Positions 28,740 through 59,424 of a stretch of DNA of 64,000 bases are shown in pieces. This DNA is from Gammaproteobacteria bacterium (GTDB lineage Bacteria; Pseudomonadota; Gammaproteobacteria; JACCXJ01). A program made the translations under genes and the position numbers. How positions within the stretch are numbered: the stretch's first letter is position 1; the number at the start of each line of letters is the position of its first letter. The stretch spans positions 91 through 64,090 of the forward strand of contig JBOIDF010000009.1 of NCBI GenBank assembly GCA_050740455.1. The letters are read 5' to 3'. Below the pieces are notes generated by a model, which was not told where the DNA came from, ran no database searches, and was given only the letters and a program-made list of their open reading frames with translations.

Positions 28740-29684
28740 ATGGATCATAGTTCACGCAGACTTATTCTGGTTACCGGCATACCCCGGAGCGGTACAACCG
28801 CTGTTGGACGAATGTTGTCGCTGGCACCTCATGCCTGCACGCTCCATGAGCCATTCAATTATCACTCCGGGCTTAGACAGATTAACGCATACTTCGAAAT
28901 TCCAGGCGCGCCTTCTTTTCCATTTCAGATGCTTGACCAGATAATATGTAACGCCAAGCAGCTAGAGCTAGCGTTTAAACTCGGAGTTTTTCCTACTGAT
29001 GAAGGATTGAGACGAGTAATAAAATCGATAATCGGCGGGCGGCCGTTAAATACTTATCGGCGGTTGCGACTTTACCCCGCTGTTAAGACGATAATTTGGA
29101 AGGATCCGGCGGCGTGCTTCACAGCGGATTACGTATCTAAGCAACACGATGTCGACGTGCTGGTGACCCTTCGCAATCCTTGGGCGGTTGCGGCGAGCTT
29201 CAAACGCATGGAATGGGCTTTTGATCTTAGCGATATTTCCACACGCTTGAGTCAAGCAGGTATAGACGGTCGCAACATCCTGCCGTTGGTCGGGGGGCAG
29301 GTTCATAATTCGGTAGTGAATGCGGGTGTTCTCTGGGTCACAATCTATTCAGTTCTTGCGAAATGGGCGGATACGAACACAAGGATCCACATTGTTAACT
29401 TAGATGAGATCCTCGCTCATCCGAATTCGGCCTACGCTAAAATTTACCAGTTACTCAAACTCGAGTGGACGGATCGAGTTTCAAGAAAGATCAGTAAACT
29501 CTACAGGACAACATCGGATTCAATCGTACCGAAACATAAAAAAGCGCACGATCAGAATAGGGATATTCGCAAAGTGAATGATTACTGGCGAGAAATTCTT
29601 ACTGAAGAAGAATGCGATTTTATCGCCAATCATGTAACGCCACACTGGGAGAAGCTTCAGAGAGTTGGTGCTGGAAAAAGTTAG
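28740..29684 (+). CDS. Sulfotransferase-family protein
   Basis: ILVTGIPRSGTT 5'-PSB loop, LHEPF, WKDP, VTLRNPWAVAASF 3'-PB motif. Confidence 0.8.
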   Translation: MDHSSRRLILVTGIPRSGTTAVGRMLSLAPHACTLHEPFNYHSGLRQINAYFEIPGAPSFPFQMLDQIICNAKQLELAFKLGVFPTDEGLRRVIKSIIGGRPLNTYRRLRLYPAVKTIIWKDPAACFTADYVSKQHDVDVLVTLRNPWAVAASFKRMEWAFDLSDISTRLSQAGIDGRNILPLVGGQVHNSVVNAGVLWVTIYSVLAKWADTNTRIHIVNLDEILAHPNSAYAKIYQLLKLEWTDRVSRKISKLYRTTSDSIVPKHKKAHDQNRDIRKVNDYWREILTEEECDFIANHVTPHWEKLQRVGAGKS

Positions 29685-31510: not shown

Positions 31511-31655
31511 TATATGGCCTTAATAATTTTGGCAGGATTCTATGATGTGTTGACCGCTGAAGTGAGCGTGATCACGGTTCGCGCTCCGATAGATGAGGAG
31601 TACAATTCCATGATCTGCAATTTAAACTGCGTTGAACTTCTTATCCTTATCTGGC

Positions 31656-32237
31656 ATGTTGGACGTCGATAACTACTTCAATTTTGAATTCGCCGAGCAT
31701 TCGCGGGTAGTGGCCGCGACGCGAGACCAGCTGGCCGAGCCCTTCAAACATCTCGTAGAGGCATGTGTCAAGGCTGTACGTGGCGGTGGTAAGCTCATGT
31801 TTTTCGGCAACGGGGGCAGTGCCGCCGACGCCCAGCACCTGGCGACGGAGCTCACCGTACGCTACGTGAAGAATCGTCAGCCGATTGCCGCCATCTCGCT
31901 GACCACGGACACGTCGGCCCTCACAGCGATCGGTAACGACTTCAGTTTCGACCAACTGTTTGCGCGCCAGGTCTTGGCGCTCGGCAAGGCGGGCGACGTG
32001 GCCATCGGGATCTCCACGTCGGGCCGCAGCGCCAACGTCGTGTGTGCGCTGCAGGTGGCACGAAAGCAGGGCATCGTGCCGGCTGCCCTCACCGGGAGAG
32101 ATGGCGGCGACTTGGTAGGGTTGGCCGAGCCTATCCTGATCGTCCCCTCCGACACCACTTCCCGCATACAAGAGATGCATATCACGCTAGGACAGATGCT
32201 GTGCGGCGCGCTGGAGCTCGGTTTGGGACTGGTCTGA
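31656..32237 (+). CDS. gmhA: D-sedoheptulose-7-phosphate isomerase
   Basis: FGNGGSAADAQHLATEL, TAIGNDF, GISTSGRS, SRIQEMH. Confidence 0.95.
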   Translation: MLDVDNYFNFEFAEHSRVVAATRDQLAEPFKHLVEACVKAVRGGGKLMFFGNGGSAADAQHLATELTVRYVKNRQPIAAISLTTDTSALTAIGNDFSFDQLFARQVLALGKAGDVAIGISTSGRSANVVCALQVARKQGIVPAALTGRDGGDLVGLAEPILIVPSDTTSRIQEMHITLGQMLCGALELGLGLV

Positions 32238-32249
32238 GAAGGTAACCCT

Positions 32250-33728
32250 ATGGGGGCGGCACGTAAAATTGACTCTGCCACGCGGATCCGCGAATTGGCT
32301 CGCGCCCGGGTGTTAGTGGTGGGTGACGTGATGTTGGATCGCTTCGTGAGCGGGTCCGTGAACCGGATCTCACCGGAAGCACCCGTACCGGTCTTGAACA
32401 TCGAGCATGCCTGTTCGATGCTCGGGGGGGCGGGTAATGTCATAAGAAACCTTACCGCGTTAGGGGCGATGCCGAGGTTCGTGGGCGTCATCGGCGGCGA
32501 CCGCGAGGGCGAAGAAGTTCGTACTTTAATGGCGGAGGCCGTGGGACAAGATCGTCACCACCTAGTGCTCGAAGCGGGCCGGCCAACCACCACCAAGACG
32601 CGATATGTCTCGGGGGGCCACCAATTGTTACGGGTCGATTGCGAGATTGCGGCGCCTTTAAGCCCGGTATCGGCGCTGGCTTTGATAGCCGCGGCCGAGG
32701 GCGCTCTCAAGCATGCGGACGTGCTGGTGCTCTCTGATTATGCGAAGGGCGTCCTGGCCCCGAGCATTGTTACCAGCCTGATCGAAGCGGCGCAGCGCTT
32801 CGCTTGCCGGGTCATCGCCGATCCCAAGAGCCGGCATTTCGATGTATATCGAGGCGTCAGTGTTATCACGCCGAACCGTGGCGAGCTGGCGGCCGCGACC
32901 GGCATGTCGGCACGGACCGACGCGGAAATAGAAAGGGCTTGCAAGCAGGTGCTCGCGAGTTGCGATATTACGGCGGTCCTGGCGACGCGTAGTGAGGAGG
33001 GCATGAGCTTAGCTACTCGTGAGGGAGGCGTATGGCATTTGGCCGCGCATGCTCGGGAAGTCTATGATGTCTCGGGGGCTGGCGATACTGTCGTGGCAGT
33101 GCTGAGCGCCGCATTGTCGGCAGGGACCGATTTCCTCGAAGCGGCGCAGCTAGCCAACCTAGCCGCGGGCATCGTCGTGGGCAAGGTAGGTACGGCGGTG
33201 GTACGCCCGGACGAACTGATTTACGCCGTGCGCGAGGAACGCTGGATCGAAGCCGACAACAAGATAGTGAGCCTACAAATCGTCGTTGAACAGGTTGCTG
33301 CGTGGCGGCGCGCCGGTCTGAGGATCGGCTTTACCAACGGCTGCTTCGACCTGTTACATCCTGGCCACCTGTCGTTGCTGCGGCAGGCGCGCGCCGCCTG
33401 CGACCGCCTGGTCGTGGGTCTGAACAGCGACGCTTCGATTAAGCGGCTCAAAGGTGAAGGACGGCCAGTACAGCCGGAATTGGCGCGGGCGGCGCTATTG
33501 GCATCGCTGGCTGACGTAGACCGAGTGGTGATCTTTGTCGAGGATACGCCGATTAGTCTGATCGATGCGATCCGCCCGGACTTGCTCGTCAAGGGCGCCG
33601 ATTACAGCCGCGATACGGTCGTCGGAGGGGATATCGTTGAGCGTTATGGCGGGAAGATCTTGCTCGCAAACCTGGTACCTGAGCACTCCACAACGGCCAC
33701 TATCAGGCGCGTCGGCGGTGCGGGATAG
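32250..33728 (+). CDS. hldE: Bifunctional heptose-7-phosphate kinase / heptose-1-phosphate adenylyltransferase
   Basis: GDVMLDRF..RISPEAPVP, GGAGNV, DVSGAGDTV, FTNGCFDLLHPGH, VKGADY. Confidence 0.96.
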   Translation: MGAARKIDSATRIRELARARVLVVGDVMLDRFVSGSVNRISPEAPVPVLNIEHACSMLGGAGNVIRNLTALGAMPRFVGVIGGDREGEEVRTLMAEAVGQDRHHLVLEAGRPTTTKTRYVSGGHQLLRVDCEIAAPLSPVSALALIAAAEGALKHADVLVLSDYAKGVLAPSIVTSLIEAAQRFACRVIADPKSRHFDVYRGVSVITPNRGELAAATGMSARTDAEIERACKQVLASCDITAVLATRSEEGMSLATREGGVWHLAAHAREVYDVSGAGDTVVAVLSAALSAGTDFLEAAQLANLAAGIVVGKVGTAVVRPDELIYAVREERWIEADNKIVSLQIVVEQVAAWRRAGLRIGFTNGCFDLLHPGHLSLLRQARAACDRLVVGLNSDASIKRLKGEGRPVQPELARAALLASLADVDRVVIFVEDTPISLIDAIRPDLLVKGADYSRDTVVGGDIVERYGGKILLANLVPEHSTTATIRRVGGAG

Positions 33729-33871: not shown

Positions 33872-35002
33872 ATGACAGGAGAAAGAGGAAATCTAGGACT
33901 AAAATTAGCTGACCGCTATATTGGAATTCCTCTGGTAGCGATTTTAGGCTTTGTGCTTGCAATGATGCGCCGAGCGTCGAACGCCAGCAAGTGCGAGACC
34001 GATAGTCGATTGGCTATCGGTATTCTTGCTACTGGCGCCATCGGCGATACGATTTTGGCGAGTGCGATTATGCACGACATCAGGGACGCTTTTCCGGATG
34101 CTTCCCTAACCATATTTACTTCCAAAGCAAACGCTGCCGTCGCATCGTTAATTACGGCAATAAACGAGGTAATTGTCCTGCCTATCATGCAGCCCTGGCG
34201 GGCGCTTGCCCAGTTGAGACGGCGACGCTTCGACTGGCTTATCGACCTCGGTCCTTGGCCGCGAATCAACGCTGTTTTCGCTGGCCTATCGGGCAGCCGT
34301 CACACCGTTGGCTTCAAAACCCGAGGTCAGTGCCGCCACATGGTTTATGACTATGTCGTAAATCATCGAAATGATCGTCACCAGTTGGAGAATCTTCGGG
34401 CACTGGTCGAACCACTAAAAATATCCCCGACCCAGCATCCAACAATCAAGACCGAAAGCGCGCCTCCCAATGCCACTCCCGCGCGTCCTTTTGTGGTATT
34501 TCACGCATGGCCCGGCGGCTACAAATCGCACTACAAGGAGTGGCCCGCAGGACAATGGCAAGATCTTGGACAGCGGGTGCAAGGATTGGGCTGGGCAACC
34601 GTTTTGACCGGCGGTCGGGATGATATCGACAAGTCGGCGTTCCTCGCGGGCGAACTCGGAAACGCGGGCGTCCAAGTTACCGATCTAGCGGGAACCTGCT
34701 CCCTGGCGCAAACGGTGGCCCTAATTCAGCGAGCCGATGCAGTCGTCAGCGTAAATACCGGGATCATGCACATGGCGGCGGCATTGGGTACGCCAGTCGT
34801 CGGTCTGCACGGCCCGACTAGTTCCTTGCGCTGGGGCCCCGTGGGATCACGCGCAGCAAGTGTGGATGCGCCAGGATCTGGCTGCGCGTACTTGGATCTT
34901 GGGTTTGAATACCCAAGCAATCCACCCGAGTGCATGGCGAGGATTTCAACCGATAGTGTAATGGCCGCGTTGCGGCGCATAGCCAGGCACCCACGGTGCT
35001 GA
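33872..35002 (+). CDS. Glycosyltransferase family 9 (heptosyltransferase-like)
   Basis: GAIGDTILA, K.WP, DLAGTCSL, VSVNTGIMHMAAALGTPVVGLHGPT. Confidence 0.92.
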   Translation: MTGERGNLGLKLADRYIGIPLVAILGFVLAMMRRASNASKCETDSRLAIGILATGAIGDTILASAIMHDIRDAFPDASLTIFTSKANAAVASLITAINEVIVLPIMQPWRALAQLRRRRFDWLIDLGPWPRINAVFAGLSGSRHTVGFKTRGQCRHMVYDYVVNHRNDRHQLENLRALVEPLKISPTQHPTIKTESAPPNATPARPFVVFHAWPGGYKSHYKEWPAGQWQDLGQRVQGLGWATVLTGGRDDIDKSAFLAGELGNAGVQVTDLAGTCSLAQTVALIQRADAVVSVNTGIMHMAAALGTPVVGLHGPTSSLRWGPVGSRAASVDAPGSGCAYLDLGFEYPSNPPECMARISTDSVMAALRRIARHPRC

Positions 35003-35434: not shown

Positions 35435-36115
35435 ATGAAATACCGTTTCATAAAGCGCCTTCTGGTCCGGGCGGGACGCTATTGCCCGTTCGTCGTCATT
35501 CGATTTTTGAACTCCGCGATTAATTACTTGGGCACCGGCCACTGGTTCAAGGCAAGGGGGATCGAGATCGGTAATTCCGTGCCGACCCGGTACCAGCTCT
35601 TCGATCTCGTGGTCTCGAAAATCGCGCAGGACCGCGTGCTCTACCTGGAGTTCGGGGTGTACGAGGGTACCACCATGCGCTACTGGTCGAAGTTGCTGCG
35701 GAACCCCTCTTCGCAATTGCATGGCTTCGATAGTTTCACCGGACTGCCCGAGGAGTGGAATCTCAGGAGCAAGCACGCCTTCTCGACGGGGGGCCAGATC
35801 CCGCTGATCGACGATCCGCGGGTGAAGTTCTTCAAAGGGTGGTTCTCAGACACTCTCAAAGACTATACCTTGCCCGATAACGAGCAGCTCCTGTTCGTGA
35901 ATATCGACGCGGATCTCTATTCCTCCGCTAAGACGGTGCTCGAATTCCTGGGCGATCGCCTTCGGGTCGGCAGCTACGTTTATTTCGACGAATTCTGTGA
36001 TCGCGCGAACGAGCTGAAGGCTTTCGACGAGTTCATTAAAGATACCAAGATGGAATTTCGCGCCGTCTGCGCCACTGAAGCGCTCGAGCATGTCGTGTTT
36101 CAACGGGTACGGTAA
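35435..36115 (+). CDS. TylF/MycF/NovP-like O-methyltransferase
   Basis: YLEFGVYEG, GFDSFTGLPE, KGWFSDTL, NIDADLYSS, YVYFDEF. Confidence 0.85.
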   Translation: MKYRFIKRLLVRAGRYCPFVVIRFLNSAINYLGTGHWFKARGIEIGNSVPTRYQLFDLVVSKIAQDRVLYLEFGVYEGTTMRYWSKLLRNPSSQLHGFDSFTGLPEEWNLRSKHAFSTGGQIPLIDDPRVKFFKGWFSDTLKDYTLPDNEQLLFVNIDADLYSSAKTVLEFLGDRLRVGSYVYFDEFCDRANELKAFDEFIKDTKMEFRAVCATEALEHVVFQRVR

Positions 36116-37473: not shown

Positions 37474-39000
37474 ATGGGCGATGCGAGAAAAATCTTACTC
37501 TTGGAAATGAATGAGATTCCCTATCGGGTTATAGATTATTACACGAGCGAACATGACGAGAGCGTTATTCAGCGTTTGCTCGAACGTTCCAAGGCTTATC
37601 TGACCATCTGCGAAGATCAGATCGAGCTCGATCCCTGGATCAGCTGGCCGACACTGCATCGCGGCGTCATCGATGAACAACACCGAGTCCTCCATCTCGG
37701 CCAGGCACTCGACTACGCCAACAACACCTACCCGCCGATCTGGGAGATCTTAGCAAGCGAGGGATGGCAGATCGGCGTATTTGGTTCCCTGCATAGCTCA
37801 GCGAAGCCCAAGGACCTGAGGAATTATCGCTTCTACGTGCCGGACTTTTTTGCCGACGAAGCGTTCGTTCATCCTCAGGAACTGGAAGCCTTTCAAAAAT
37901 TTAATCTTATGATGACCCGGAAGTCAGCGCGCAATGTTGATACCGCCGTTCCAATCAAGGAGGCGTTCAACTTCCTTATTGCCTACCTTCGACAAGGAAT
38001 GAGCGCCGGCACCGCAGCGGCCATTGCTACGCAGTTGGTTAATGAGGTTTTGCATCCGCACCTGAAGTGTCGCCGCCGATCGATCCAGCCTGCGATTAGC
38101 ATGGACATTTTCCTCTATCTCATGCGGCATATCCGGCCAGACCTCGCGACATTCCACACGAACCACGTCGCTGCGGCGATGCATCGCTTCTGGGCAGCGA
38201 CCTTTCCGGACGACGTTCCCGAGAATCGGATGTCGGATACATGGACAAAGCAGTATTGTAAGGAAATCGACCACGCGATGAGTATGCTTGACGACATGCT
38301 TGGCCGGATCAAGGACTTCATCGATGCTCATCCGGACTATAAGCTATTGATCGCGACCAGCCTCGGGCAGGCTGCGGTCAGGGCCGAAGAAACCAAGGGT
38401 TTCGTTACTGTCACCGATCCGAACCGCTTACTCAGCGCTCTCGGCTTGGCAAACGGCGAATGGAAAGAAAAACATGCGATGGTGCCGTGTATTAGCGTCA
38501 TTACTAAAGCAGGCAAAGGTGACTTCTTGGAAGAACGCCTAAACCAGCTAGCCGTAAACGGGGCACGGATGATTCGTAACGAGCGTGAAACCGCACCGCT
38601 AAGTTATGATCGAAAGGAGAGCAACTCCTTCCATATCTTCGTCTACTTCGAGAGGTACTCGGGTCCATCGATTGCCGTGCTTGGGAATCGCGAGCTGTCA
38701 TTTGGCGACCTAGGTCTCGGGTTCTTCCAGCATCAAGACAATATTGCGTGTTCCGCCAGGCACACGCCACACGGCGTGCTAATTGTGTACGATCCAATTC
38801 GGCCGCATCCTGATCGGCGACGCACAACCATCTCCACGCTCGATATCGCACCCGCCATCCTTGACAACTTTAATATACCCTCTCCCTCCTACATGAAGCG
38901 TCCGGACCCAACCTTGCTAGATACTGGGGCTGTCGGCGTGCCGTGCGAGTTGCTTATCGACACACCTGAGCGCCAGCGGATGGTGAAACGCGTCGACTGA
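37474..39000 (+). CDS. Alkaline-phosphatase-superfamily (phosphodiesterase/sulfatase-like) hypothetical protein
   Basis: LLLEMNE, LDPWISWPTLHRG (nucleophile-like Thr/Ser motif), FHTNHVAAAMHRFW, ARHTPHG; 508 aa. The ATSLG stretch lacks the usual SDHG. Confidence 0.6.
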   Translation: MGDARKILLLEMNEIPYRVIDYYTSEHDESVIQRLLERSKAYLTICEDQIELDPWISWPTLHRGVIDEQHRVLHLGQALDYANNTYPPIWEILASEGWQIGVFGSLHSSAKPKDLRNYRFYVPDFFADEAFVHPQELEAFQKFNLMMTRKSARNVDTAVPIKEAFNFLIAYLRQGMSAGTAAAIATQLVNEVLHPHLKCRRRSIQPAISMDIFLYLMRHIRPDLATFHTNHVAAAMHRFWAATFPDDVPENRMSDTWTKQYCKEIDHAMSMLDDMLGRIKDFIDAHPDYKLLIATSLGQAAVRAEETKGFVTVTDPNRLLSALGLANGEWKEKHAMVPCISVITKAGKGDFLEERLNQLAVNGARMIRNERETAPLSYDRKESNSFHIFVYFERYSGPSIAVLGNRELSFGDLGLGFFQHQDNIACSARHTPHGVLIVYDPIRPHPDRRRTTISTLDIAPAILDNFNIPSPSYMKRPDPTLLDTGAVGVPCELLIDTPERQRMVKRVD

Positions 39001-39358: not shown

Positions 39359-40501
39359 ATGAGAATCGCAGTTAACGGCAAGGCCTTCGGTATCGCCACG
39401 AAGGGGGGTGCTGTGAGAGTGGCTATCGCACTGGTCAAACAGATTGCTTCGCTCGATCACGCGATTTCCCTGCATATCTATATTCCGATGGAAAATTCAC
39501 ACGGCAAATCCTTTCAAACGCTGCCGGCAAGCGTAACCGTCCATAAAACATGCTCGGCCCTTTATCGGAATAGTATTGCTAGATCATTATGGGAGCAAAT
39601 CCTGCTGCCGGTTCTTATTCGCAAACACGGGGGCTACGATATTTTGATCAACTTAACCAATTCAGCGCCGGTGTTTCTATCTCCTGGTATACCGCAAGTT
39701 CTACTACTCCATGACGTTGGCTTTCGTAACACTCGATGGTTTTCTCGTTCCTTCTCCATGTATCTGTCGTGGGTGTTGCACCGAGCGATCAAACGCGGAA
39801 TCCAGTTGGTAACCGTGTCAAAAACCTCCGCGGCGCAAATAGCTGAAATGTTTCCCACGGTCAGCACGGTGCACGTTATTCCGAATGACGCCGACCACCC
39901 CGAAGATGTGGTGAAAGCGCGCGAGTTGGGCTATCGTTACGGGCTGTTTCTTGGCTCGCTCAATCCAAGAAAGAATCTCGACGGCGCCATTTCAGGCTTT
40001 CAAAATTTTATCGCTACCACTCGCGACGACCTTCGTTTGGTTGTCGTCGGTGCGGAAAAACAAATCTTTGCTCGCAACCGAGCCAAGCAAGCCAAGTTTG
40101 GCAATGTCGTTTTTCGCGGCTATGTGGACGATTTAGAAAAGTGGAGTCTGCTCCGTGGCGCCGATTTTCTTTTATTCCCGTCGTTTTTGGAAGGCTTTGG
40201 AATTCCCATTCTGGAGGCTATGCGAGTCGGCACGCCGGTTGTAGCCTCGGACATTCCGGTATTTCGTGAGCTATTCGAAGATGCCGTTGAATATGTGGAT
40301 CCTCATTCTCCTGCCGATATCGGCCGGGGAATTCGTGAACTGCATGGCAATGCAACGAAAAAGGAATGGATGATCGTACGTGGGGTGGAGATAGCCAAGA
40401 AATTTTCTTGGACGCGCGCCGCGCAGAATTATCTCCAGCTTTTCGCAGAAACTGTGAAGGTTCATAATCTAGAGCATAATCACAGAGTGCGAGGAAAGTG
40501 A
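39359..40501 (+). CDS. Glycosyltransferase family 4
   Basis: FLGSLNPRKNL, FRGYVDD, FPSFLEGFGIPILEAM..GTPVVASDIPVFRE. Confidence 0.93.
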   Translation: MRIAVNGKAFGIATKGGAVRVAIALVKQIASLDHAISLHIYIPMENSHGKSFQTLPASVTVHKTCSALYRNSIARSLWEQILLPVLIRKHGGYDILINLTNSAPVFLSPGIPQVLLLHDVGFRNTRWFSRSFSMYLSWVLHRAIKRGIQLVTVSKTSAAQIAEMFPTVSTVHVIPNDADHPEDVVKARELGYRYGLFLGSLNPRKNLDGAISGFQNFIATTRDDLRLVVVGAEKQIFARNRAKQAKFGNVVFRGYVDDLEKWSLLRGADFLLFPSFLEGFGIPILEAMRVGTPVVASDIPVFRELFEDAVEYVDPHSPADIGRGIRELHGNATKKEWMIVRGVEIAKKFSWTRAAQNYLQLFAETVKVHNLEHNHRVRGK

Positions 40502-40744: not shown

Positions 40745-41620
40745 ATGAAACCGACATTCCTGTTTATCGGACCCGATAAAACCGGCTCAACGTGGCTGTA
40801 TGAAATTCTGCGCCAGCATCCCGATTGTTACGTGCCCCCATGCAAAGACATCTATTTTTTCGATCGCTACTACGACCGTGGACTGGATTGGTACTTCTCT
40901 TTTTTCAAGCATACTCCGGCTGGCGTTCGGGCCGTCGGTGAGTTTTCGCATGACTACCTTTTCTCGCCGCAAGTCGCCGAACGGATCGCGCAGGACCTCC
41001 CAGGCATCAAGCTCTTGACCTGTCTGCGGAATCCGGTGGAGCGAACATTTTCTCATTACCTGTACTTGATTCGAAGCGGAAGGACGGTAGAGCCATTCGA
41101 GGTCGCTCTGGATAAATTCCCTGAACTTATCAATAACAGCATGTATTACAAGAATCTCTCGGAATATTTCCGCCGCTTCGATTCACGCCAGATCAAAGTG
41201 CTTTTTTTTGATCTGCTACAGTCCGACCCAGAAGCCTTCGCGAAGTCAGTCTTTGAGTTTCTCGGTCTGACTTTTATCCGGAATATCGAGTACAGTAAAA
41301 AGATACGGGTCGCAAGCCAACCACGTAGTTATCTGTTGGCACGGCTTGCTAAATCTGGCGCCAACCTCGCAAGATATTTTGACATGACGAATCTAGTGGG
41401 AGTTGTGAGCCGCAGCACGTTGGCGCAGATGCTTTATATGCCTTATCACCAACATGAGCGACCCAAGATGGATGCTTCGACCCAAGAGCAGTTGACCGCT
41501 CTATTTCAGCCCGATATTTTGCGCTTGCAAGGTTTGCTGGGTGCAGATCCTTTTGGACGACGCTCATGCGTGGTCCGGCAGCCTTCTGCAAGGGATAGCG
41601 AGAGGCATAATTGCGCTTGA
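40745..41620 (+). CDS. Sulfotransferase (heparan 3-O-ST / Sulfotransfer-like)
   Basis: FIGPDKTGSTWL, KDIYFFD, GEFSHDY, CLRNPVERTFSHY, SMY..L..Y..F; extreme C-terminus may be altered. Confidence 0.9.
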   Translation: MKPTFLFIGPDKTGSTWLYEILRQHPDCYVPPCKDIYFFDRYYDRGLDWYFSFFKHTPAGVRAVGEFSHDYLFSPQVAERIAQDLPGIKLLTCLRNPVERTFSHYLYLIRSGRTVEPFEVALDKFPELINNSMYYKNLSEYFRRFDSRQIKVLFFDLLQSDPEAFAKSVFEFLGLTFIRNIEYSKKIRVASQPRSYLLARLAKSGANLARYFDMTNLVGVVSRSTLAQMLYMPYHQHERPKMDASTQEQLTALFQPDILRLQGLLGADPFGRRSCVVRQPSARDSERHNCA

Positions 41621-42258: not shown

Positions 42259-43002
42259 ATGCCAACGCGTACTATGGACAAAGTTGACGTCGAAGAGATC
42301 GAAAAAAAAATAGCGGGCATTCCCTGGTGGCATCGGATCGACATCCATGGTGTGGTAACGCCGGGATCCCGCGCGGCACCCTCTCAACAGTGGAAATCCG
42401 ACGCCATCGACAAAGATTTGAGCGGCAAGGACATTCTCGATATTGGGACGTGGGACGGGTATTACACGTTCTTGGCGGAGTCGCGAGGAGCCAGGCGCGT
42501 CGTCGCCGTTGATGCCTGTCAGGGACCCTCCACGCCCAGAGGATTTCAGACGGCCAAGGAATTACTGAGATCGAAGGCGGAACACCACATTTTGGATGTC
42601 CACCAGCTGGATCGGCTCGACGGCACTTTCGATTGGATCTTCTTTTTTGGGGTTTACTATCATTTGGAAGATCCCTATTCGGCTTTACAGCAGATTTTCA
42701 ACAAGCTCAAGCCCGGCGGCACTCTCCTCTTGGAAGGGCTGGTCCGCGCCGGAAGCAAACCCTACCTTTACGCTTATCGCCCCGGGGAAGCCGACCCCAC
42801 CACGTACTGTGCAGCCACGGTACCCTGGCTGCGGTTAGCTTGCCAACGCATAGGTTTTTCTTCCGTTGATTTTGTGTCTCGTTATCCGGGAGACAACGCC
42901 TGGGAGAAGCTTGGTCGCTTTGTTGCCTGGCATCTACGGCTTCACGCGGGGCGGTTCAGAAAAGCTCACCGCGCGATCATCAAGGCCCGCACACCAGCTT
43001 AG
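42259..43002 (+). CDS. Class I SAM-dependent methyltransferase (DUF1698/CmoB-like)
   Basis: WWHRID, DLSGKDILDIGTWDGYY, GARRVVAVD, FDWIFFFGVYYHLEDP, LKPGGTLLLE. Confidence 0.88.
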   Translation: MPTRTMDKVDVEEIEKKIAGIPWWHRIDIHGVVTPGSRAAPSQQWKSDAIDKDLSGKDILDIGTWDGYYTFLAESRGARRVVAVDACQGPSTPRGFQTAKELLRSKAEHHILDVHQLDRLDGTFDWIFFFGVYYHLEDPYSALQQIFNKLKPGGTLLLEGLVRAGSKPYLYAYRPGEADPTTYCAATVPWLRLACQRIGFSSVDFVSRYPGDNAWEKLGRFVAWHLRLHAGRFRKAHRAIIKARTPA

Positions 43003-43063
43003 CATCGGGCAACGCGCCCCCCGACACAAACATATCGCTCCCGGAAAACGTTCGCCTCTACAT

Positions 43064-43292
43064 CAAACTTAGCGGCACATAATCGATAAGGTCTTTGTTA
43101 ACGACGTATCCATTATCAAGCCAGTTTCTAAAGCGAAACCGTACTCGCGGGTTGCCCCATCTGAGCAAGTGCGCGATGGTCACGGGTTTGCTCATATGCA
43201 GCACTCTATGTCCATTCTTTGTGAATTCATGGGCCAGATGGTGAGAACCGACTACAAACACACCGCCCAAAGGCGTGTGGCTGCCAAAGACG
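43064..43292 (-). pseudogene. Partial duplicate of the 5' end of the GT gene at 30026-31195
   Basis: About 229 bp highly similar to 30959-31187 (FGSHTP.GGVFVVGSHHLAHEFTK..DLIDYVPLSL). Confidence 0.9.
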
Positions 43293-43400
43293 GCTTCCCG
43301 CCGTCGAGCGCTCTCCACTAGCCCCCCCGCGTTCAAAACCTTAACTCAGGTCACACCTTTTCTCCCTGAACCGCGCCGTTCAGGGTGATTCTTGCGCGTT

Positions 43401-43429
43401 TTGCTAAAGCAGTATACTGTGCTTATGAT
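43401..43429 (+). promoter_or_regulatory. Putative sigma70 promoter for the riboswitch-GH transcript
   Basis: TTGCTA (43401-06), 17-nt spacer, TATGAT (43424-29); spacer contains the palindrome CAGTATACTG; direct repeat GGTTACAG at 43431 and 43443. Confidence 0.5.
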
Positions 43430-43562
43430 CGGTTACAGGTCGGGTTACAGCCGCGGCGTACCGTAAACCGCTACTAAAGCTTCAAAACCGAGCGCCGATA
43501 GATTCGGGCGTTCGAGCGAGGATTCTCGCGAGGTGGATCAACACCTAAAGAACTAGAGAGCA

Positions 43563-43653
43563 CTGAAAAAGGCAAACCATCCGAAAGGATGGGACGCAAA
43601 GCTACTGGCCTAAACCCTCAATGGTTGGGGGGCATGGTCGCAGGGTTGCCAGG
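43563..43653 (+). ncRNA. c-di-GMP-I (GEMM-I) riboswitch aptamer
   Basis: AAAGGCAAACCATCCGAAAGGATGGGACGCAAAGCTACTGGCCTAAA...GGTCGCAGGGTTGCC closely follows the Vc2-type consensus: GNRA loop GAAA and receptor TAAA. Equivalents of G20 (43571), A47 and C92 (43649) are retained; short P1 CTG/CAG. Confidence 0.93.
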
Positions 43654-43722
43654 CGATCCAACAGTACCTCCTGTGTGCTGGGCGTTTCGCTAGGCACATG
43701 TCCGTAAACAAGGAGGCTACTA

Positions 43723-45366
43723 ATGTTCAGTATTAAATCACGCCTCAGCTTCACCAGGACTTTAGGTTCAACGGTGATGTTGGGAATCATGTTATTTCTC
43801 TCTGTACCAGCGCACACGTATGCGGCGGATATAATCATCGACAACAAGGACCCTGGTGTGTCCTGGTCGAATACACCAGGATGGTCTGGCCAACGCATAA
43901 CGTCAGCGTATAAAGGCCACGCGGGGATGACGCGGAACAAAAATGCGTGGAGTACATTCAAGTTCGGTTCCCCGCAGAGCGGCAAGTACGATGTATACAT
44001 GCACTGGCCTAAATGGTCGGGATCGCTACCAGATAACGCTGTGCCGGTAGTCATCAAGCATTCGTCCGGTACTCAGACGGTTAAGGTTAATCAGCGGCAG
44101 AATGGCGGACGGTGGAACCGTTTAGGGACTTGGAAGCTGGATAATTCAGCTTACTTAACCCTTACGAATCGGGGCCATGGGAGAACTTATTTCGATGCCA
44201 TTAAACTGGTGCCGTCGTTGGGAACTCCTCCGAAGGATCCCACTTTATCATTGACGGCGAACCCTCTAACGGTGAGTAAAGGCGGGGCCGCGACCTTATC
44301 GTGGGCCTCTCAAAATTCCACATCATGCACGGCAAGCGGCGGATGGTCCGGAAACAAAGGCTTGTCGGGTAGTCAAACTGCTAGTAATATTACCTCCAGC
44401 CAAACCTATAATTTGACTTGTACCGGTACTACTAAGAACGTCTCGGCGGCGGTTAACGTGGTAGTCGCACTCCCTCCACCCCCTCCCCCTTCTCCTCCAC
44501 AGCCTGTCATCGGCCTCGCCGTCCAACAGCACATGGGCACGTTCGATGTGGCAGGCCAGGCATTCACTAAAGAACTCGACCCTCACTCCTTACGGTTGGG
44601 GTACAACCACGGGGACCACGATTTCGGCATCAAATGGGCTGCTCAAAACGGCAAGTCGGTTGTTTTCATGCTGGGTTACGGTGTAGGTATTGATGCGAAG
44701 ACTCCCAACGGCCGGCAGGCGTACGCGAATCGTTCCGCCAATCTCGCTCAAACGTATGGCAATAAAGTCCAATATTACGAAGTTTGGAACGAATGGAATG
44801 GGGGATTCGGTTTGCCGTGCAATTGGCGAGAGCCCCCCTGCAACGATGCCGCTATGTATACCGACCTGCTTTGCAAGACATACACGGCAATCAAGGCGGT
44901 TCGGCCGAGTGCCATGGTTGTCGGCGGCGCAGTGGCGAACGCGAGCAAAGCTTTTATTAGTGGCATGCTCGATGCCGGTGCTGGAAACTGCATGGACATG
45001 TTGTCTTTGCACATATACATCTACGGGCAAAAGTCGCCTGGTAATGTCGCACGCAATGCACCCGCATCGGAGGGCGCCGCCAAGCTTATTAAAATCGTGA
45101 CGGACAGAGAGAATCTGATCAAACAAAAGACTGGGAGGACTATCCCGATTCTTGTGACTGAAGCTGGCTTCCACGGTACTGATGAGCAACTTGGGGCCGA
45201 GTATGTCACTGAACTCTACAAGCAAGCTCAAGCAGTACCGTTTATTGAGGGGATATGGTGGTATGCGCTGGAAGACGCGGGCAAGGGGACTTTTGGCCTG
45301 GTACGGAGCAACAACACCAAGAAGCCTGCCTTTGCGGCATATCAGGAAGTTGCACGGGAATATTAG
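43723..45366 (+). CDS. Secreted multi-domain glycoside hydrolase (clan GH-A, GH39/PslG-like) with N-terminal golvesin/xanthan-lyase-type CBM-like domain, Ig-like domain and Pro linker
   Basis: Signal peptide ending AHTYA-ADIIIDN; GKYDVY..W..NQRQNGGRWNRLGTW; PTLSLTANP..TLSW..CTASGGWSG..TYNLTC; poly-Pro; YEVWNEWN (acid/base), ILVTEAG (nucleophile), FGLV..KKPAFAAY; AGGAGG RBS. Confidence 0.85.
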   Translation: MFSIKSRLSFTRTLGSTVMLGIMLFLSVPAHTYAADIIIDNKDPGVSWSNTPGWSGQRITSAYKGHAGMTRNKNAWSTFKFGSPQSGKYDVYMHWPKWSGSLPDNAVPVVIKHSSGTQTVKVNQRQNGGRWNRLGTWKLDNSAYLTLTNRGHGRTYFDAIKLVPSLGTPPKDPTLSLTANPLTVSKGGAATLSWASQNSTSCTASGGWSGNKGLSGSQTASNITSSQTYNLTCTGTTKNVSAAVNVVVALPPPPPPSPPQPVIGLAVQQHMGTFDVAGQAFTKELDPHSLRLGYNHGDHDFGIKWAAQNGKSVVFMLGYGVGIDAKTPNGRQAYANRSANLAQTYGNKVQYYEVWNEWNGGFGLPCNWREPPCNDAAMYTDLLCKTYTAIKAVRPSAMVVGGAVANASKAFISGMLDAGAGNCMDMLSLHIYIYGQKSPGNVARNAPASEGAAKLIKIVTDRENLIKQKTGRTIPILVTEAGFHGTDEQLGAEYVTELYKQAQAVPFIEGIWWYALEDAGKGTFGLVRSNNTKKPAFAAYQEVAREY

Positions 45367-45510
45367 TATCTATTGACCATTGGTTCAATATCACGGAAGG
45401 AGCGAAATAAGTCGGTTTCGTTAACCCAACCTGGGCTGGTATTAGGTATGGTGCGAGAGGCCCTTCAGGAATGATTTAATCCCTCGCACCTGCCATCGGC
45501 TAACTCCGTG

Positions 45511-45680
45511 TGTAACCCCCCGGCTTTGCCGGGGGACTCACCGTGGTTTGACCTGAACTACGGTCGGCGCGGATCTCCGATCTCCGCCAACAGAAGAGGG
45601 TTCACAGATGAAGGAATATCAGAGTTTGAGTCACGTAGAGTTTTTACCGAAGCGAAGGAAGAAACGGATTCTGCCTGAAG
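45511..45680 (+). mobile_element. IS200/IS605-family left-end hairpin and deleted tnpA stub
   Basis: CCCCCCGGCTTTGCCGGGGG hairpin, then MKEYQSLSH fused to V.FLPKRRKKR (intervening CKYH segment missing). Confidence 0.75.
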
Positions 45681-45970
45681 GGTGGGAGATCGTGCGAGGC
45701 AGAGGTAACCCTCAAGATGGTCCTTCACCGACGTTGTCCGTCGGATCACACCCAACGTTTTACAACGTCTACCTCGGAATCGAGCTAATAAACGATTTTG
45801 GGGGCGTACGCGCTAAACCCCAAAATTCAGCGGAATGAGGTCCCCGTTAACATACGGTGCGCGTAAGTCGGATGAAAGCGCGAGCGCCCCGATGCTGGAA
45901 AACGCATTCCACCCCACGTAAGCCCAACGGGTAAAACGCACGGCGCGGCTTTGAACCTGACAATCGCGAC

Positions 45971-46294: not shown

Positions 46295-46524
46295 TCAGCT
46301 CTATGTCTTCCACTCCGTTAGCTCGCTCGTTGACAAATACTGTATTCATGTGTGCTAGTTCGCTTACGTCCGTAGCAACGATGATTTTGCCACAGATGTC
46401 ATGCGAGATCTTATGCTCTTTGGCAAAGCGTACTAGTTCACGGCGACCTTCAACGCAGTTTGTCGCTCTATGGGAGCCCGGTTTGTAGTATATGCCGGAA
46501 TGGATAACGCCTGAATTGCGGCCG
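46295..46524 (-). pseudogene. lhgO: L-2-hydroxyglutarate oxidase (LhgO-like) internal fragment
   Basis: [47 protein letters not shown]; ends at MITE copy 2. Confidence 0.85.
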
Positions 46525-46551
46525 CTGATCACATCCGCAGGATCCTTGCGA

Positions 46552-47844
46552 TCAGAAAGCCTGAATTTCGGGACGTCGCGAAACGCTGGATAGGAGCGAT
46601 CTAGAGTTCGAAATGTAGCTATAGGCGATTCCAAGGAATAGTGACAGCGGTAGACTTGTGTAGTGAGGTACGGCAACCATGAGTGTTATGAACACTGTTA
46701 GAACCGCTGCCTTGAGGCCAACCTCCGCCTCCGTGTTACCTAGCTTCAACACGGGATATACAAAAATCCACGTCGTCATAATCAATCCCACAACCCCTAA
46801 GTTAACAAGAATGGTTGAAAAAAAATCCGTTGAACGAACGTAGCCATTACCTATGCCAAACACTTGAGTAAGTAGCGAGCCATTCAAAAAGAAGTCTGTC
46901 GTGTTCAGAAAAGAATCGTATCGATTAGCTCCTGAGGCACTTTGAAGAGTTAGTTTGTTTTCGACTATCTGTGCATATACATCCAGTACAATTGCGTTAC
47001 CGGACAGGCCCATGGCCAAGACGGTAACTAATACGATTAATGAGACAAACACGATTTTGTCGGCTGGCCCAAAATAGCAGAGGCGAACAATAAAATACAC
47101 AAAGATCCCTAACATTGCGGTCGTCGACGTACTCAACAGTAGCGTTATGAAAAGCAACATGTGCGTAAAAGTACGATTCGTATGCAACGCGTAAATCCAG
47201 AACGGCAAGATTGCGAATGCATACATTGAAGGCTCTCCCGCGAGACTCTTCAACCTCTGGACCGTCAGGGGCCCCAAATGAATTGTCTGAAACCAGCTGC
47301 CCGTGTGAACGTCGCCGAATAAGTTTCCACTGTCGAAGGTTCGGTTACTGAGGAAGTCCCCACTGTCCCCGAAAACGAGAAAGTACACCCACTCATATAT
47401 ACCGTATAGAGCAAACACTATGGCGCCGGTAAAAAGATATTTGTCCCACCGTACGCTGTACAAATGCTTCACGAAAAAAAAAGTCGATGCAGCCGCCAGA
47501 ACATAAAGAGACTGGGTGAACATGGGTTTTCTCATTAATATCCGTCGATCAGTATCCGAATCGATCAGCGGTAAGTTCAGCGGGAACTGCACAGTTTGCG
47601 AAAAACTTAGGCTAAGTTGCGCGATCGCATTAAGCGCCGCGTATAGCATAACAAACAGAATCAAGTCATAGTAAAAACGTAATAGCATGTCTTTAGGAAT
47701 CACCAGTACACTTATCGGCGGACAGATAACCGCTAGCGCAAATAAATAGCCAGGCGTCGTGCCTTGAACAGACGGTAGTAAAAGAATAGAAGTTATTGGC
47801 AGGACTATCGCCCAAGCAGCGAAATAAAAATCATGTCGAGACAT
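46552..47844 (-). CDS. Wzy/O-antigen-polymerase-like polytopic membrane protein
   Basis: 430 aa, about 10-12 TM, AT-rich; periplasmic loop with RLKSLAGEPS, LLLSTSTTAMLG, SGANRY and GIGNG motifs. Confidence 0.7.
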   Translation of the reverse strand: MSRHDFYFAAWAIVLPITSILLLPSVQGTTPGYLFALAVICPPISVLVIPKDMLLRFYYDLILFVMLYAALNAIAQLSLSFSQTVQFPLNLPLIDSDTDRRILMRKPMFTQSLYVLAAASTFFFVKHLYSVRWDKYLFTGAIVFALYGIYEWVYFLVFGDSGDFLSNRTFDSGNLFGDVHTGSWFQTIHLGPLTVQRLKSLAGEPSMYAFAILPFWIYALHTNRTFTHMLLFITLLLSTSTTAMLGIFVYFIVRLCYFGPADKIVFVSLIVLVTVLAMGLSGNAIVLDVYAQIVENKLTLQSASGANRYDSFLNTTDFFLNGSLLTQVFGIGNGYVRSTDFFSTILVNLGVVGLIMTTWIFVYPVLKLGNTEAEVGLKAAVLTVFITLMVAVPHYTSLPLSLFLGIAYSYISNSRSLLSSVSRRPEIQAF

Positions 47845-48701: not shown

Positions 48702-48950
48702 TTATATAAAACGCACTACTAGTTCACGGCGACCTTCAACGCAGTTTTTCGCTCTATGGGAGCCCGGTTTGTAGTATATGCCGGAATGGATAACGCCTGA
48801 ATTGCGGCCGGTCTGATGTGCCGCCAGCCTATTTTCCTTTTCGAGCAAAGCTATTTTCAGGTCGGGATACCGGGTATTGATTTTGTACGCAGCCGCGAGA
48901 CCGACGCAACCTCCGCCGACCACCACAACATCAAATTGCTGGTTTGTCAT
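48702..48950 (-). pseudogene. lhgO: LhgO-like FAD oxidase, 5' fragment
   Basis: [42 protein letters not shown]; truncated after about 80 codons. Confidence 0.88.
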
Positions 48951-48980: not shown

Positions 48981-50012
48981 TTATTTCGCCCAATCCTCTG
49001 GAGTATCGTGCTGCCAATCTTCCAGTGCCTGGTCGAGGGTATACTGGTATTGATATCCGGCATGATAAAGAACGCTGGGAACAATGTTGTTTGATTGCAC
49101 CAACTTGCGAATACGAACTGGGCTAATCGGTTGGTTAATGCCCAGAGGACGGCCCACCGCTTCTAGCGCATAAGATGCCGCGAGCAACAGATGGTAGGGA
49201 ACCGAAGGCACAAATCGCGCTATACCGGCCACACGGCAGATAGCCTGCACATACTCCTCGACGGTAGGAGTCGGGTCCATTGAAAAATTGAACAACTCGA
49301 CGTTAATCCCTTGCGTTTCTATACGTGCTAATGCCCAAGCGAGCGCATGGCAGAGCTCCTTTACATAGCCGCCCGCTTTCCGGGTCTGACGGTTCCCTAT
49401 ATAGAAAAGGTACCGTCCTAATAACGCTCGTATCATGCGGGTCATGTTGCCGTGTTCCCCCGCTCCAAAAACCACTCCCGGGCGGACGATTATGAGACGG
49501 CGGCCTTTACCTGCAAGCTGCCAGGCAATATGAATTTTCTCGGCCACCAACTTTGATGCTCCGTACGGAGAAATTGGAACCGGCAAGGATCGTTCGTCTT
49601 TATTCTCCTCAGTTGGGCCGTACGGTGCGATGCTGCTAGTGAAAATAATGTGCTGGCAGCCAACGTGCTCGGCCCAGGCACAAACGTTTTCCGCGCCAGG
49701 AAGGTTCGTGGCATAGTATTCGTGCGCTTCATGGCCTGGCTCTCGATGCACGGCGGCGAAGTTTCCAATCAGATCAACCCGCTCGGATAGAGCAGGATGT
49801 TGGATGGGGTAGCGCACATCAATCGGCACATGTTCGATCTGCCCGCTTTTACTTAGCTCTAGCAGACCTTGTGGCCAAGCCCCACGCTCGATCGGTTGAA
49901 GGTCAGCCAGAAAGACCTTCTCAGCAATGTCATTCGTTAACAGATAGCGCGCGAAATGTGTGCCTATAAAACCAGTGCCTCCGAATAGTACACACATCTT
50001 ATATGTGCTCAC
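48981..50012 (-). CDS. NAD-dependent epimerase/dehydratase (extended SDR)
   Basis: LFGGTGFIG, NFAAVHREPG, FTSSIAPYG, YGASK, RPGVVFG; GTG start chosen. Confidence 0.9.
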   Translation of the reverse strand: MSTYKMCVLFGGTGFIGTHFARYLLTNDIAEKVFLADLQPIERGAWPQGLLELSKSGQIEHVPIDVRYPIQHPALSERVDLIGNFAAVHREPGHEAHEYYATNLPGAENVCAWAEHVGCQHIIFTSSIAPYGPTEENKDERSLPVPISPYGASKLVAEKIHIAWQLAGKGRRLIIVRPGVVFGAGEHGNMTRMIRALLGRYLFYIGNRQTRKAGGYVKELCHALAWALARIETQGINVELFNFSMDPTPTVEEYVQAICRVAGIARFVPSVPYHLLLAASYALEAVGRPLGINQPISPVRIRKLVQSNNIVPSVLYHAGYQYQYTLDQALEDWQHDTPEDWAK

Positions 50013-50284
50013 GTTTCTCTTAGGTTCTCCGATCAAGGTTTTCCATGGGCGTAGATCAAGTACTATACCGTAAATCAATAGGTAACAATATAATTGCTAA
50101 TTGAAAGTGACACTTTTGTAGTTTAGAAGAGGAAGGCTACCTGGGATAATATGAAGCATCGAATGCAAACGAACCCCAAAGGGTTACCCGAGGACTAAAG
50201 TGTCATACGAAGAAGCTATGGTTTCCACCCATAGCGCAAAGTTCCCCGGAACAAACCTGCGATGTGTATATGCGCTGGTCAAAT

Positions 50285-59347: not shown

Positions 59348-59424
<77 letters not shown>

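Follow-up and report, generated by a model that had tools for sequence, protein, structure and literature searches.

In a 64,000-nucleotide (nt) stretch of a gammaproteobacterial contig (GenBank JBOIDF010000009.1; hereafter the window), a cyclic di-GMP (c-di-GMP) class I aptamer, also called GEMM-I, lies directly upstream of a gene for an exported glycoside hydrolase (GH), within a cluster of glycan-assembly genes. The reading put forward here, which we hold to be slightly on the probable side, is that a canonical c-di-GMP riboswitch, acting through a platform hairpin that takes up the Shine-Dalgarno (SD) sequence, controls the exported hydrolase of this glycan cluster, a relative of PslG and of family GH39; for the direction of control an OFF mechanism is proposed. 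c-di-GMP is the main signal for building the biofilm matrix, and the regulation of PslG-type locus hydrolases is usually viewed as a matter of operon co-expression. Much less is clear about how a fall in c-di-GMP is coupled to enzymatic trimming or removal of the matrix than about how matrix is built; if the reading is true, a riboswitch before the locus hydrolase would connect c-di-GMP with glycan hydrolysis in a simple way, no protein effector being needed. The two central features are:

43560-43654, plus strand: c-di-GMP class I (GEMM-I) aptamer (Rfam match and pairing in nine orthologues)
43723-45366, plus strand: open reading frame (ORF) of a 547-residue hydrolase, ATG start (translation)

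The aptamer was located by a covariance-model scan with Rfam over the whole window, covering riboswitches and other RNA families alike, the best-ranked member being reported where members of a clan overlapped. Two matches were returned, one a tRNA and the other an aptamer of the c-di-GMP-I clan at 43562-43654 on the plus strand (69.5 bits against a gathering score of 59, E 2.3e-14), so that the window holds a single riboswitch; an earlier note on this DNA, made from the letters alone, had placed a GEMM-I aptamer at 43563-43653, in agreement to within a base. Its closing helix pairs G43560, C43561 and C43563-G43565 with C43650-C43654. Two hairpins are joined by an AAA linker, with a GAAA tetraloop at 43583-86 and the tetraloop receptor CCUAAA/CAUGG at 43609-14 and 43633-37, and linker, tetraloop and receptor are all traits of the receptor-containing type of GEMM (PMC1950547). 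Among nine distinct orthologous aptamers, every one of the 251 alignment cells of the 28 pairs of the fold is a standard pair, compared with 35-53% when partners are slid along the alignment. At 93% identity only two pairs have changed on both sides, and covariation is correspondingly thin; despite this the fold, as judged from the alignment, is not in doubt.

The Rfam alignments place the ligand contacts G20, A47 and C92, which the earlier note had also claimed, at G43571, A43598 and C43649, and the 27 nt by which A47 follows G20 is the spacing implied by the position names. In this class, G20 forms a Hoogsteen pair with one guanine of c-di-GMP and C92 a Watson-Crick pair with the other, a role for A47 also having been described (PMC5888326). 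The best-scoring Rfam family for the window aptamer is RF03167 (c-di-GMP-I-GGC), not RF01051, so that the expected c-di-GMP-I match was borne out at the level of the clan, above threshold, but not in its top label. The core-position consensus reads GACGCGAAG in RF03167 and GACGCAAAG in RF01051, the window having GACGCAAAG; over the longer core the corresponding strings are GGGACGCGAAG, ggGACGCAAAg and, in the window, GGGACGCAAAG, the differing column being mismatched in the RF03167 alignment. We take 'GGC' to stand for the nucleotides at positions 20, 47 and 92, a reading of our own; the RF03167 consensus has G at position 47 where the window has A.

Relatives for comparison came from a survey of 164 loci from genomes and metagenomes (numbered with the prefix L) together with the contigs of individual matches. 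When scanned with Rfam, the aptamers of L080, L081, L096, L098 and L089 rank RF01051 first with 76-84 bits against a gathering score of 35, and only the window (69.5 bits) and L001 (68.7 bits, L001:5629-5720) rank RF03167 first. The top label therefore flips among orthologues that share A47 and, except in L089, G20, and an RF03167 call alone is no proof of a variant pocket. Since the core column is A, the orthologues rank RF01051 first and G20, A47 and C92 are canonical, we do not think that the label reflects a variant binding pocket; competition between two related models would explain it. The 'GGC' label, then, can fall on aptamers with a canonical binding pocket.

The aptamer of L089 (L089:526-627) has A at the equivalent of window G43571 (AAAAAAGCAAACC), in a single metagenome contig where a sequencing error is possible. 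Such an A at G20 is the change associated with recognition of 3',3'-cyclic GMP-AMP (cGAMP) in GEMM-Ib. This orthologue, together with the top rank of RF03167 for the window and L001, is what can be said for the view that the aptamer senses 3',3'-cGAMP or is a variant of some other specificity, a view we regard as very improbable: the window itself has G20, A47 and C92, with A in the differing column as in RF01051, and G20, A47 and C92 recur in seven orthologues (L080, L081, L084, L085, L087, L096 and L098), all of which match the aptamer models; Rfam scans, made for four of the seven (L080, L081, L096 and L098), rank RF01051 first every time. By its predicted contacts the window aptamer is a canonical class I c-di-GMP riboswitch, which would bind that ligand.

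The gap from the aptamer to the ATG of the hydrolase gene, on the same strand, is 69 nt, practically the 70 nt given earlier. Residues 1-34 of the protein read as a Sec-type signal peptide, with a K/R-rich start, a hydrophobic core and TYA followed by AD, so that of the earlier description as 'secreted' export is supported and nothing beyond it. The first module, residues 38-163, is assigned to Pfam Golvesin_C (7.7e-18) and also matches the β-sandwich at the C-terminus of a xanthan lyase from Paenibacillus (PDB code 6f2p, 1e-11). An Ig-like β-domain at residues ~174-249 and a proline linker (PPPPPPSPP, residues 250-261) follow, and residues 262-547 form a clan GH-A (β/α)8 catalytic domain, the final helix of the barrel being also the end of the protein (residue 547). 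From the single sequence, this domain matches PDB entry 5jvk (1.5e-8) and GH39 β-xylosidases (3e-3) with the NE and TE motifs aligned; a profile of 41 sequences raises the matches to 5e-16 for 5jvk and 3e-9 to 1e-5 for the GH39 xylosidases and brings in PslG at 8e-4. A model built with AlphaFold2 (AF2) from the 41-sequence alignment has a predicted local distance difference test (pLDDT) score of >90 over most of 260-547, with an alternating strand-helix pattern. Foldseek searches of the PDB with it retrieved GH-A enzymes only (PslG, GH39, GH10 and GH2, probability 1.00), so that model, structure search and profile matches alike agree with the clan GH-A fold proposed in the earlier note. The best single-domain match is PslG (TM-score 0.54 on the target, root mean square deviation (rmsd) 4.2 Å, 19% identity), after which come GH39 xylosidases and GH10 xylanases; the top-ranked GH2 matches are multi-domain alignments with an rmsd of ~15 Å.

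Among the 41 homologues W355-N356-E357 is invariant and E480, in the VTEAG motif, is at least 90% conserved. E357 (codon 44791-93, VWNEWN) is the predicted acid/base and E480 (codon 45160-62, VTEAG) the predicted nucleophile, both at the positions expected for the clan. In the GH39 xylosidases and in PslG a β-sandwich accompanies the barrel. Here no such domain follows the barrel, the β-domains being N-terminal only, and for this reason we call the catalytic domain GH39-related, not a proven member of GH39. On the modelled fold, the protein is predicted to be an exported, modular, retaining clan GH-A hydrolase related to GH39 and PslG.

The arrangement of riboswitch and hydrolase is conserved in a gammaproteobacterial clade. 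A search of 5.8 billion proteins found no relative above 71% identity; the full-length relatives have 62-65% and all come from metagenomes or gammaproteobacterial metagenome-assembled genomes (MAGs). A GEMM-I aptamer stands directly upstream of the hydrolase gene in 10 further loci (L001, L080, L081, L084, L085, L087, L088, L089, L096 and L098), the hydrolases being 57-69% identical over aligned stretches in the comparisons made (window against L080, L001 and L088 only). In L080 the GT4 glycosyltransferase, sulfotransferase, second glycosyltransferase, Wzy-like protein and epimerase are 90-95% identical to those of the window, compared with 62% for the hydrolase, and nucleotide identity is 91-94% in the flanks against 74% in the hydrolase cassette. 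Tandem hydrolase paralogues are present in L080 (three), L001 (three) and L088 (two), with one copy in each array carrying an aptamer. In L001 the array is followed by genes for an arylsulfotransferase, a sulfotransferase and a Wzy_C-like protein; sulfotransferase and Wzy-like genes thus accompany the hydrolase in all three loci compared (window, L080 and L001), and GT4 and epimerase genes do so in two (window and L080). The glycan-gene linkage is stable while the enzyme turns over fast.

As for the paralogues themselves, they carry swapped N-terminal modules, and conservation is higher in the 'head' composed of riboswitch and signal peptide than in the rest of the gene. A platform fragment at L080:7500-7554 precedes an aptamer-less paralogue. 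Decayed leaders at L083:864-978 and L082:82-186 consist of the 3' half of the aptamer and the SD hairpin before an intact hydrolase gene (P0002).

A second occurrence was found in Betaproteobacteria. All loci were searched with a covariance model built from the nine aptamers, besides a regular-expression search, and the model gave one further match, in Derxia gummosa DSM 723 (L012 12341-12428, minus strand; Rfam RF01051, 67 bits). This aptamer lies 147 nt upstream of a 1007-residue ORF with a GH5/GH39-like domain (Pfam Cellulase, 1e-10), in a locus that also encodes a Wzx flippase, UDP-glucose dehydrogenase (Ugd) and a Wzz/GNVR protein, as well as a second hydrolase 35% identical to the window enzyme. 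Homologues of the 1007-residue protein with 36-62% identity occur in other Betaproteobacteria and in MAGs without reported taxonomy. Contigs were fetched for four of them, and in three the leader carries an RF01051 aptamer of ~62 bits:

L165:3767-3855: aptamer in a peat metagenome contig (RF01051)
L166:3703-3794: aptamer in a Methyloversatilis discipulorum MAG (RF01051)
L167:3828-3917: aptamer in GCA_050305135.1, a MAG of unreported taxonomy (RF01051)

The aptamers of L012, L165, L166 and L167 differ considerably in sequence. Several of Wzx, Wzz/GNVR, Ugd and GT4 are encoded beside the hydrolase in four of the five loci of this second family (L012, L165, L166 and L168, the last being a Sterolibacteriaceae MAG); in L167 no Wzx, Wzz, Ugd or GT4 neighbours were found. 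Profile-profile comparison of the two hydrolase families (hhalign probability 99.7%, E 3e-25), with EVWNE and TE motifs aligned, shows a shared catalytic domain. Conserved within the clade and recurring in a second family, the pairing of riboswitch and GH-A enzyme is not an accident of the window. Co-occurrence of aptamer, homologue and polysaccharide locus, raised in the earlier note, is thus found in the 10 further loci of the clade and in betaproteobacterial exopolysaccharide (EPS) loci.

The region between aptamer and gene contains an SD sequence, AAGGAGG, 6 nt before the ATG of 43723-45366, and the following structures were predicted for it and the adjoining aptamer strand.

43663-43721, plus strand: SD-sequestering hairpin pairing the anti-SD CCUCCU (43667-72) with the SD AGGAGG (43711-16) around an inner hairpin, 43673-99 (folding)
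43643-43659, plus strand: alternative hairpin GGGUUGC-CAG-GCGAUCC (ViennaRNA minimum-free-energy (MFE) folds)
43647-43696, plus strand: candidate switching helix pairing UGCCAGGCGA (43647-56) with UCGCUAGGCA (43687-96) (RNAalifold consensus)
C43662-G43680 onwards, plus strand: register of a small local anti-SD hairpin (RNAalifold)

An AGUA-UACU pairing extends the SD-sequestering hairpin up to the start codon, and the fold has z values of -2.1 to -2.9. Across the orthologues 87% of its cells are paired and in all of them the complementarity to the SD is kept, L001 and L088 having a perfect 11-bp CAGUACCUCCU/AGGAGGUACUG match in the sequestor. A consensus scan 3' of the aptamer found no hairpin with a U-tract or other terminator-like site. 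Given the complementarity preserved in every orthologue, translational control through sequestration of the SD is the most likely mode for this predicted platform.

For the direction of switching the chief candidate is the helix 43647-56/43687-96. It includes C92 and the 3' strand of the aptamer closing helix, while 43687-96 is the 3' strand of the inner hairpin; its formation is therefore mutually exclusive both with the ligand-bound aptamer and with the inner hairpin of the SD sequestor. Across the nine orthologues 96% of its cells are paired, with no covariation for or against it, and in energy the conformer containing it equals the MFE of L084 and, for L080 and L096, comes to within 2 kcal/mol of the MFE. 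The alternative hairpin at 43643-59 likewise draws in C92, along with the 3' strands of both hairpin 2 and the closing helix, and so excludes the folded aptamer. In the mechanism that we propose, bound c-di-GMP would lock the closing helix and C92 into the aptamer and leave 43687-96 free for the inner hairpin; once this had formed, the anti-SD would pair with the SD and translation would be off. Without ligand, 43647-56 would pair with 43687-96, and the freed GUGUGCUG would pair with CAGUACC, trapping the anti-SD in the small local hairpin and leaving the SD open. The enzyme would then be made at low c-di-GMP, to act on the cell's own glycan by trimming or releasing it. We advance this ligand-OFF direction tentatively, on modelled structures, and put its chances at about even.

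The opposite arrangement, in which high c-di-GMP opens the SD hairpin and the hydrolase is made along with the polymer, for PslG-type processing during synthesis or export and not for release or dispersal, is a possibility to be taken seriously even though we think it the less probable one. In the default folded state the SD is sequestered, so that ligand-dependent opening is equally conceivable, and in folds of truncated transcripts a pairing can form between ACUG (43562-65), on the aptamer's 5' flank, and CAGU at 43662-65, beside the anti-SD. PslG, moreover, is encoded in the psl operon and co-expressed with it. Many GEMM instances, too, have been predicted to raise expression upon ligand binding (Weinberg 2007, PMC1950547). 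We found no conserved helix, however, that would free the SD solely when the aptamer is folded, and the GAG/CUC extension of the 5'-flank pairing is absent from L001 and L084. The only well-conserved competitor helix, 43647-56/43687-96, is built from aptamer nucleotides and points to OFF logic.

Thermodynamic folding was itself not decisive between ON and OFF: the SD stays paired either way, and folds of progressively longer transcripts give several apo structures. Two further pairings were considered and set aside. A long-range helix of ACUGAA (43562-67) with UUCAGU (43728-33), seen in MFE folds, was rejected on the grounds that orthologue codons differ there. Pairing of the upstream GAGGUGGAUC (43528-37) with GAUCC...ACCUC (43655-70), which would free the SD, was dropped, the changes in L081 being non-compensatory and RNAalifold favouring a local hairpin.

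A number of results weigh against the regulatory and enzymatic reading preferred here. In equilibrium folding the SD has a pairing probability of ~1.0 whether the aptamer is enforced or left free, and the conformer with the switching helix lies about 9-14 kcal/mol above the MFE in the six sequences other than L084, L080 and L096, the window being one of the six with 8.6 kcal/mol; with the SD paired regardless of the aptamer and at such a cost, either the switch must be kinetic or the model is wrong. Compensatory changes are absent for both platform helices because the nine sequences are too similar. In one lineage (L082, L083 and L086) the 5' half of the aptamer is gone although the SD hairpin is still there and the gene is intact, and in the second family the hydrolase leader of L168 has no aptamer. 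On the side of the enzyme, no Pfam or NCBIfam family is assigned to residues 262-547, PF01229 and the other GH models failing to match at E up to 1. Lastly, sulfatase, heparinase, GH92 and GH99 genes lie near some of the distant homologues, which is a catabolic setting. These homologues number ~140 (26-34% identity; Pseudomonas/Stutzerimonas, Planctomycetes and Acidobacteria), and no aptamer was found within their 6-8 kb flanks. In a census of 95 of their neighbour ORFs the commonest family was GT4, with 13 members, which, alongside the sulfatase, heparinase and GH92 genes, places the wider family in both biosynthetic and catabolic settings.

The gene context in the window bears on the substrate. 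The hydrolase gene lies in a cluster with the following members.

28719-29684, plus strand: sulfotransferase (Pfam)
30026-31195, minus strand: GT4-like protein (Pfam)
31632-32237, plus strand: SIS/GmhA-like protein (Pfam)
32250-33728, plus strand: HldE (Pfam)
33872-35002, plus strand: GT9 heptosyltransferase (Pfam)
35435-36115, plus strand: TylF-type methyltransferase (Pfam)
37474-39000, plus strand: 508-residue protein with no family match (Pfam and NCBIfam)
39359-40501, plus strand: GT4 (Pfam; 95% identical to its L080 counterpart)
40745-41620, plus strand: sulfotransferase (Pfam; 91% identical to its L080 counterpart)
42259-43002, plus strand: CmoB-like methyltransferase (Pfam/NCBIfam)
46552-47844, minus strand: 430-residue membrane protein, eight hydrophobic segments, Wzy_C-like (hydropathy; BLASTP, 90% to L080)
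48981-50078, minus strand: NAD-dependent sugar epimerase/dehydratase (Pfam Epimerase; 93% identical to L080)

Pfam confirms the glycosyltransferase, sulfotransferase and methyltransferase neighbours named in the earlier note, and the presence of two sulfotransferases in the cluster fits its suggestion of a possibly sulfated glycan. The 'wzy-like' gene does encode an eight-transmembrane (8-TM) protein of 430 residues, but family evidence is confined to the L001 homologue, where the Wzy_C match (2e-6) is below the Pfam cut-off. Similarly, 'EPS locus' is right in that this is a glycan-assembly cluster, but the heptose genes for GmhA, HldE and GT9 make it resemble the lipopolysaccharide (LPS)-core/O-antigen type as much as the EPS type. 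To judge by its gene content, the cluster probably builds a heptose-containing, sulfated and methylated surface glycan. Housekeeping genes (folK, plsY, tsaD, dnaG and rpoD) lie beyond it.

Synteny with these genes suggests that the substrate of the enzyme may be the cell's own glycan. The rival view is that the enzyme serves in foraging, as a hydrolase of exogenous polysaccharide like the chitinases under GEMM control, and that its placement in the cluster is incidental, for example as a mobile, fast-evolving cassette. GEMM riboswitches are indeed known upstream of chitinase genes (PMC6366702), and a xanthan lyase ends in a domain similar to the N-terminal module of this enzyme. In a mosaic locus with gene remnants, the identity of the hydrolase gene between genomes falls to 62% where the flanking genes still agree at 90-95%, and some distant homologues sit in catabolic clusters. 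Yet no transporter, sugar-catabolic or TonB-type genes adjoin the hydrolase in the window, L080 or L001. What does accompany it is a sulfotransferase and a Wzy-like gene in all three, and a GT4 gene in the window and L080, while the second family is linked to Wzx, Wzz, Ugd and GT4 in four of five loci, the aptamer-less L168 being one of the four. We consequently rate foraging as unlikely, and return to a hydrolase acting on the glycan of its own cluster as the preferred reading.

The gene probably forms a transcription unit of its own, with these upstream elements:

43364-43385, plus strand: terminator-like GC-rich hairpin with a T-rich tail (consensus scan; sequence conserved in L001)
43401-43429, plus strand: sigma-70-like promoter candidate, TTGCTA-17-TATGAT (consensus scan; predicted start near 43436)
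43436-43559, plus strand: pre-aptamer leader of ~125 nt (four RNAalifold hairpins; conserved across orthologues)

The terminator-like hairpin at 43364-85 ends the upstream unit, which is the reason for this assignment. The sigma70-like promoter of the earlier note is present and its -10 hexamer, TATGAT, is kept in eight of nine orthologous leaders, but as a single site it does not rise above chance: it is the sole promoter-like site on the plus strand of 42900-45700, where shuffled sequences lead one to expect 2.3. In the same scan no promoter-like site was found between aptamer and ATG. With the hairpin upstream, the promoter candidate, and the lack of such a site after the aptamer, 43401-45366 appears to be a single-gene transcription unit. 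If the candidate promoter is used, the leader is ~290 nt long and the aptamer begins ~125 nt from its 5' end. Mean identity of the leader is 88% in an alignment of nine sequences, and no Rfam family matches its pre-aptamer part, 43436-43559, even at E up to 10. The window leader lacks a 36-nt hairpin (GUUGUC-AUCG-GACAAC plus flanks) that is present in all eight orthologues. Special selection on the leader, in the sense of stronger conservation than in the coding region, proved only partly true. Against L080 the leader (~88%) does not exceed the flanking genes (91-94% at the nucleotide level), the hydrolase gene itself being the unusually diverged part; against the more distant L001 the leader, at 82-83%, is above the coding region, at 71-77%.

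Known systems resemble this one in parts. GEMM-I riboswitches precede genes 'for the environment, membranes and motility', among them chitin-binding (PMC1950547) and chitinase (PMC6366702) genes, and an exported glycoside hydrolase is accordingly within the known range of the class. Aptamers such as Vibrio cholerae Vc1 (gbpA) and Vc2 (tfoY) share with the window the two hairpins joined by AAA, the GAAA tetraloop and receptor, the G20/A47/C92 contacts and a place in the 5' untranslated region (UTR) before a gene facing the extracellular environment. The window differs in that the gene is a GH39-like hydrolase within a glycan biosynthesis cluster, that the platform is a long SD-sequestering hairpin with no terminator, and that a conserved leader of ~125 nt precedes the aptamer. 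The GEMM-associated chitinase and chitin-binding genes of Aeromonas hydrophila and Vibrio also combine a c-di-GMP-I riboswitch with an exported carbohydrate-active protein (PMC6366702, PMC1950547), but theirs act on an exogenous polymer, chitin, belong to another GH family and lie outside glycan biosynthesis clusters. The RF03167 variants are similar to the window aptamer in family rank, as they are to that of L001, and dissimilar at position 47.

Among enzymes, PslG of Pseudomonas aeruginosa (GH39; PDB codes 5bx9, 4zn2 and 9g17) has the same GH-A (β/α)8 fold, is exported and is encoded inside a polysaccharide locus. The sequence relation is weak, however, and in the window enzyme Golvesin_C and Ig-like domains precede a barrel that has no β-sandwich after it; the gene would be under its own promoter and riboswitch instead of operon co-transcription, and its locus has LPS-core heptose genes and sulfotransferases. 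The closest solved relatives by sequence, 5jvk and the GH39 β-xylosidases (4ekj, 4m29, 6uqj and 2bs9), are less than 25% identical, the Pfam GH39 model misses the window protein, and 5jvk is itself an 'uncharacterized protein'. The 'cellulase family glycosylhydrolase' of Derxia gummosa and its relatives have a homologous catalytic domain and an RF01051 aptamer in the leader, but are 1000-1700 residues long with repeated N-terminal modules, and are 23-25% identical to the window enzyme; the Derxia leader has a terminator-like hairpin instead of an SD sequestor. The Derxia enzyme is annotated by family name only, and we found no description of its link to a riboswitch.

Searches of the open-access literature yielded no c-di-GMP riboswitch in association with a polysaccharide-locus hydrolase of the GH39/PslG-like or 'cellulase family' kind, which is weak evidence of absence but in keeping with the earlier note, whose author knew of no such described system. 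The finding would thus add a defined gene class, new to it as far as that search goes, to the known GEMM-I regulon. The aptamer itself will be of little surprise to specialists; it is the conserved link to the hydrolase, kept across two proteobacterial classes, the culturable carrier and the fast-diversifying paralogue array that make a worthwhile lead. Derxia gummosa DSM 723, which produces gum, is in culture, and this opens the idea to genetic testing. A more ambitious interpretation, speculative and to our minds doubtful as a whole, is that a protein-free module leads from c-di-GMP to a matrix hydrolase in Beta- and Gammaproteobacteria: a fall in c-di-GMP would derepress the enzyme, which would cut the cell's own (here sulfated) polymer as a dispersal or coat-shedding switch, and in the gammaproteobacterial clade one copy of a fast-diversifying paralogue array would be under riboswitch control.

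Several minor features of the window and its relatives may be recorded. Downstream of the hydrolase stop codon, 45385-45633 is 86% identical to L001 and 80% to L088, above the coding region, and holds two GC-rich hairpins (~45448-45488 and ~45522-45540) that may be a terminator or a 3'-UTR element. Gene remnants occupy 43061-43292, 45850-45915, 46296-46526 and 48708-48950: a 232-nt piece matches part of the L080 glycosyltransferase gene (93%), a 22-residue piece matches an arylsulfotransferase, and the Wzy-like and epimerase genes lie between two fragments of a DAO-family oxidoreductase. By these remnants the locus is a mosaic. Upstream of the glycan cluster lie an alpha-glucan phosphorylase-like gene (18694-21246) and, on the minus strand, a gene for MalQ (4-alpha-glucanotransferase; 21332-23539), which look unrelated. 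Domains of group II introns adjoin hydrolase homologues on the short contigs L003 (1381-1514) and L102 (2075-2193), with none in the window. Just after rpoD a tRNA with anticodon CAU (59348-59421) is followed by a phage-type integrase gene (59520-60563), likely marking an integration site or island boundary.

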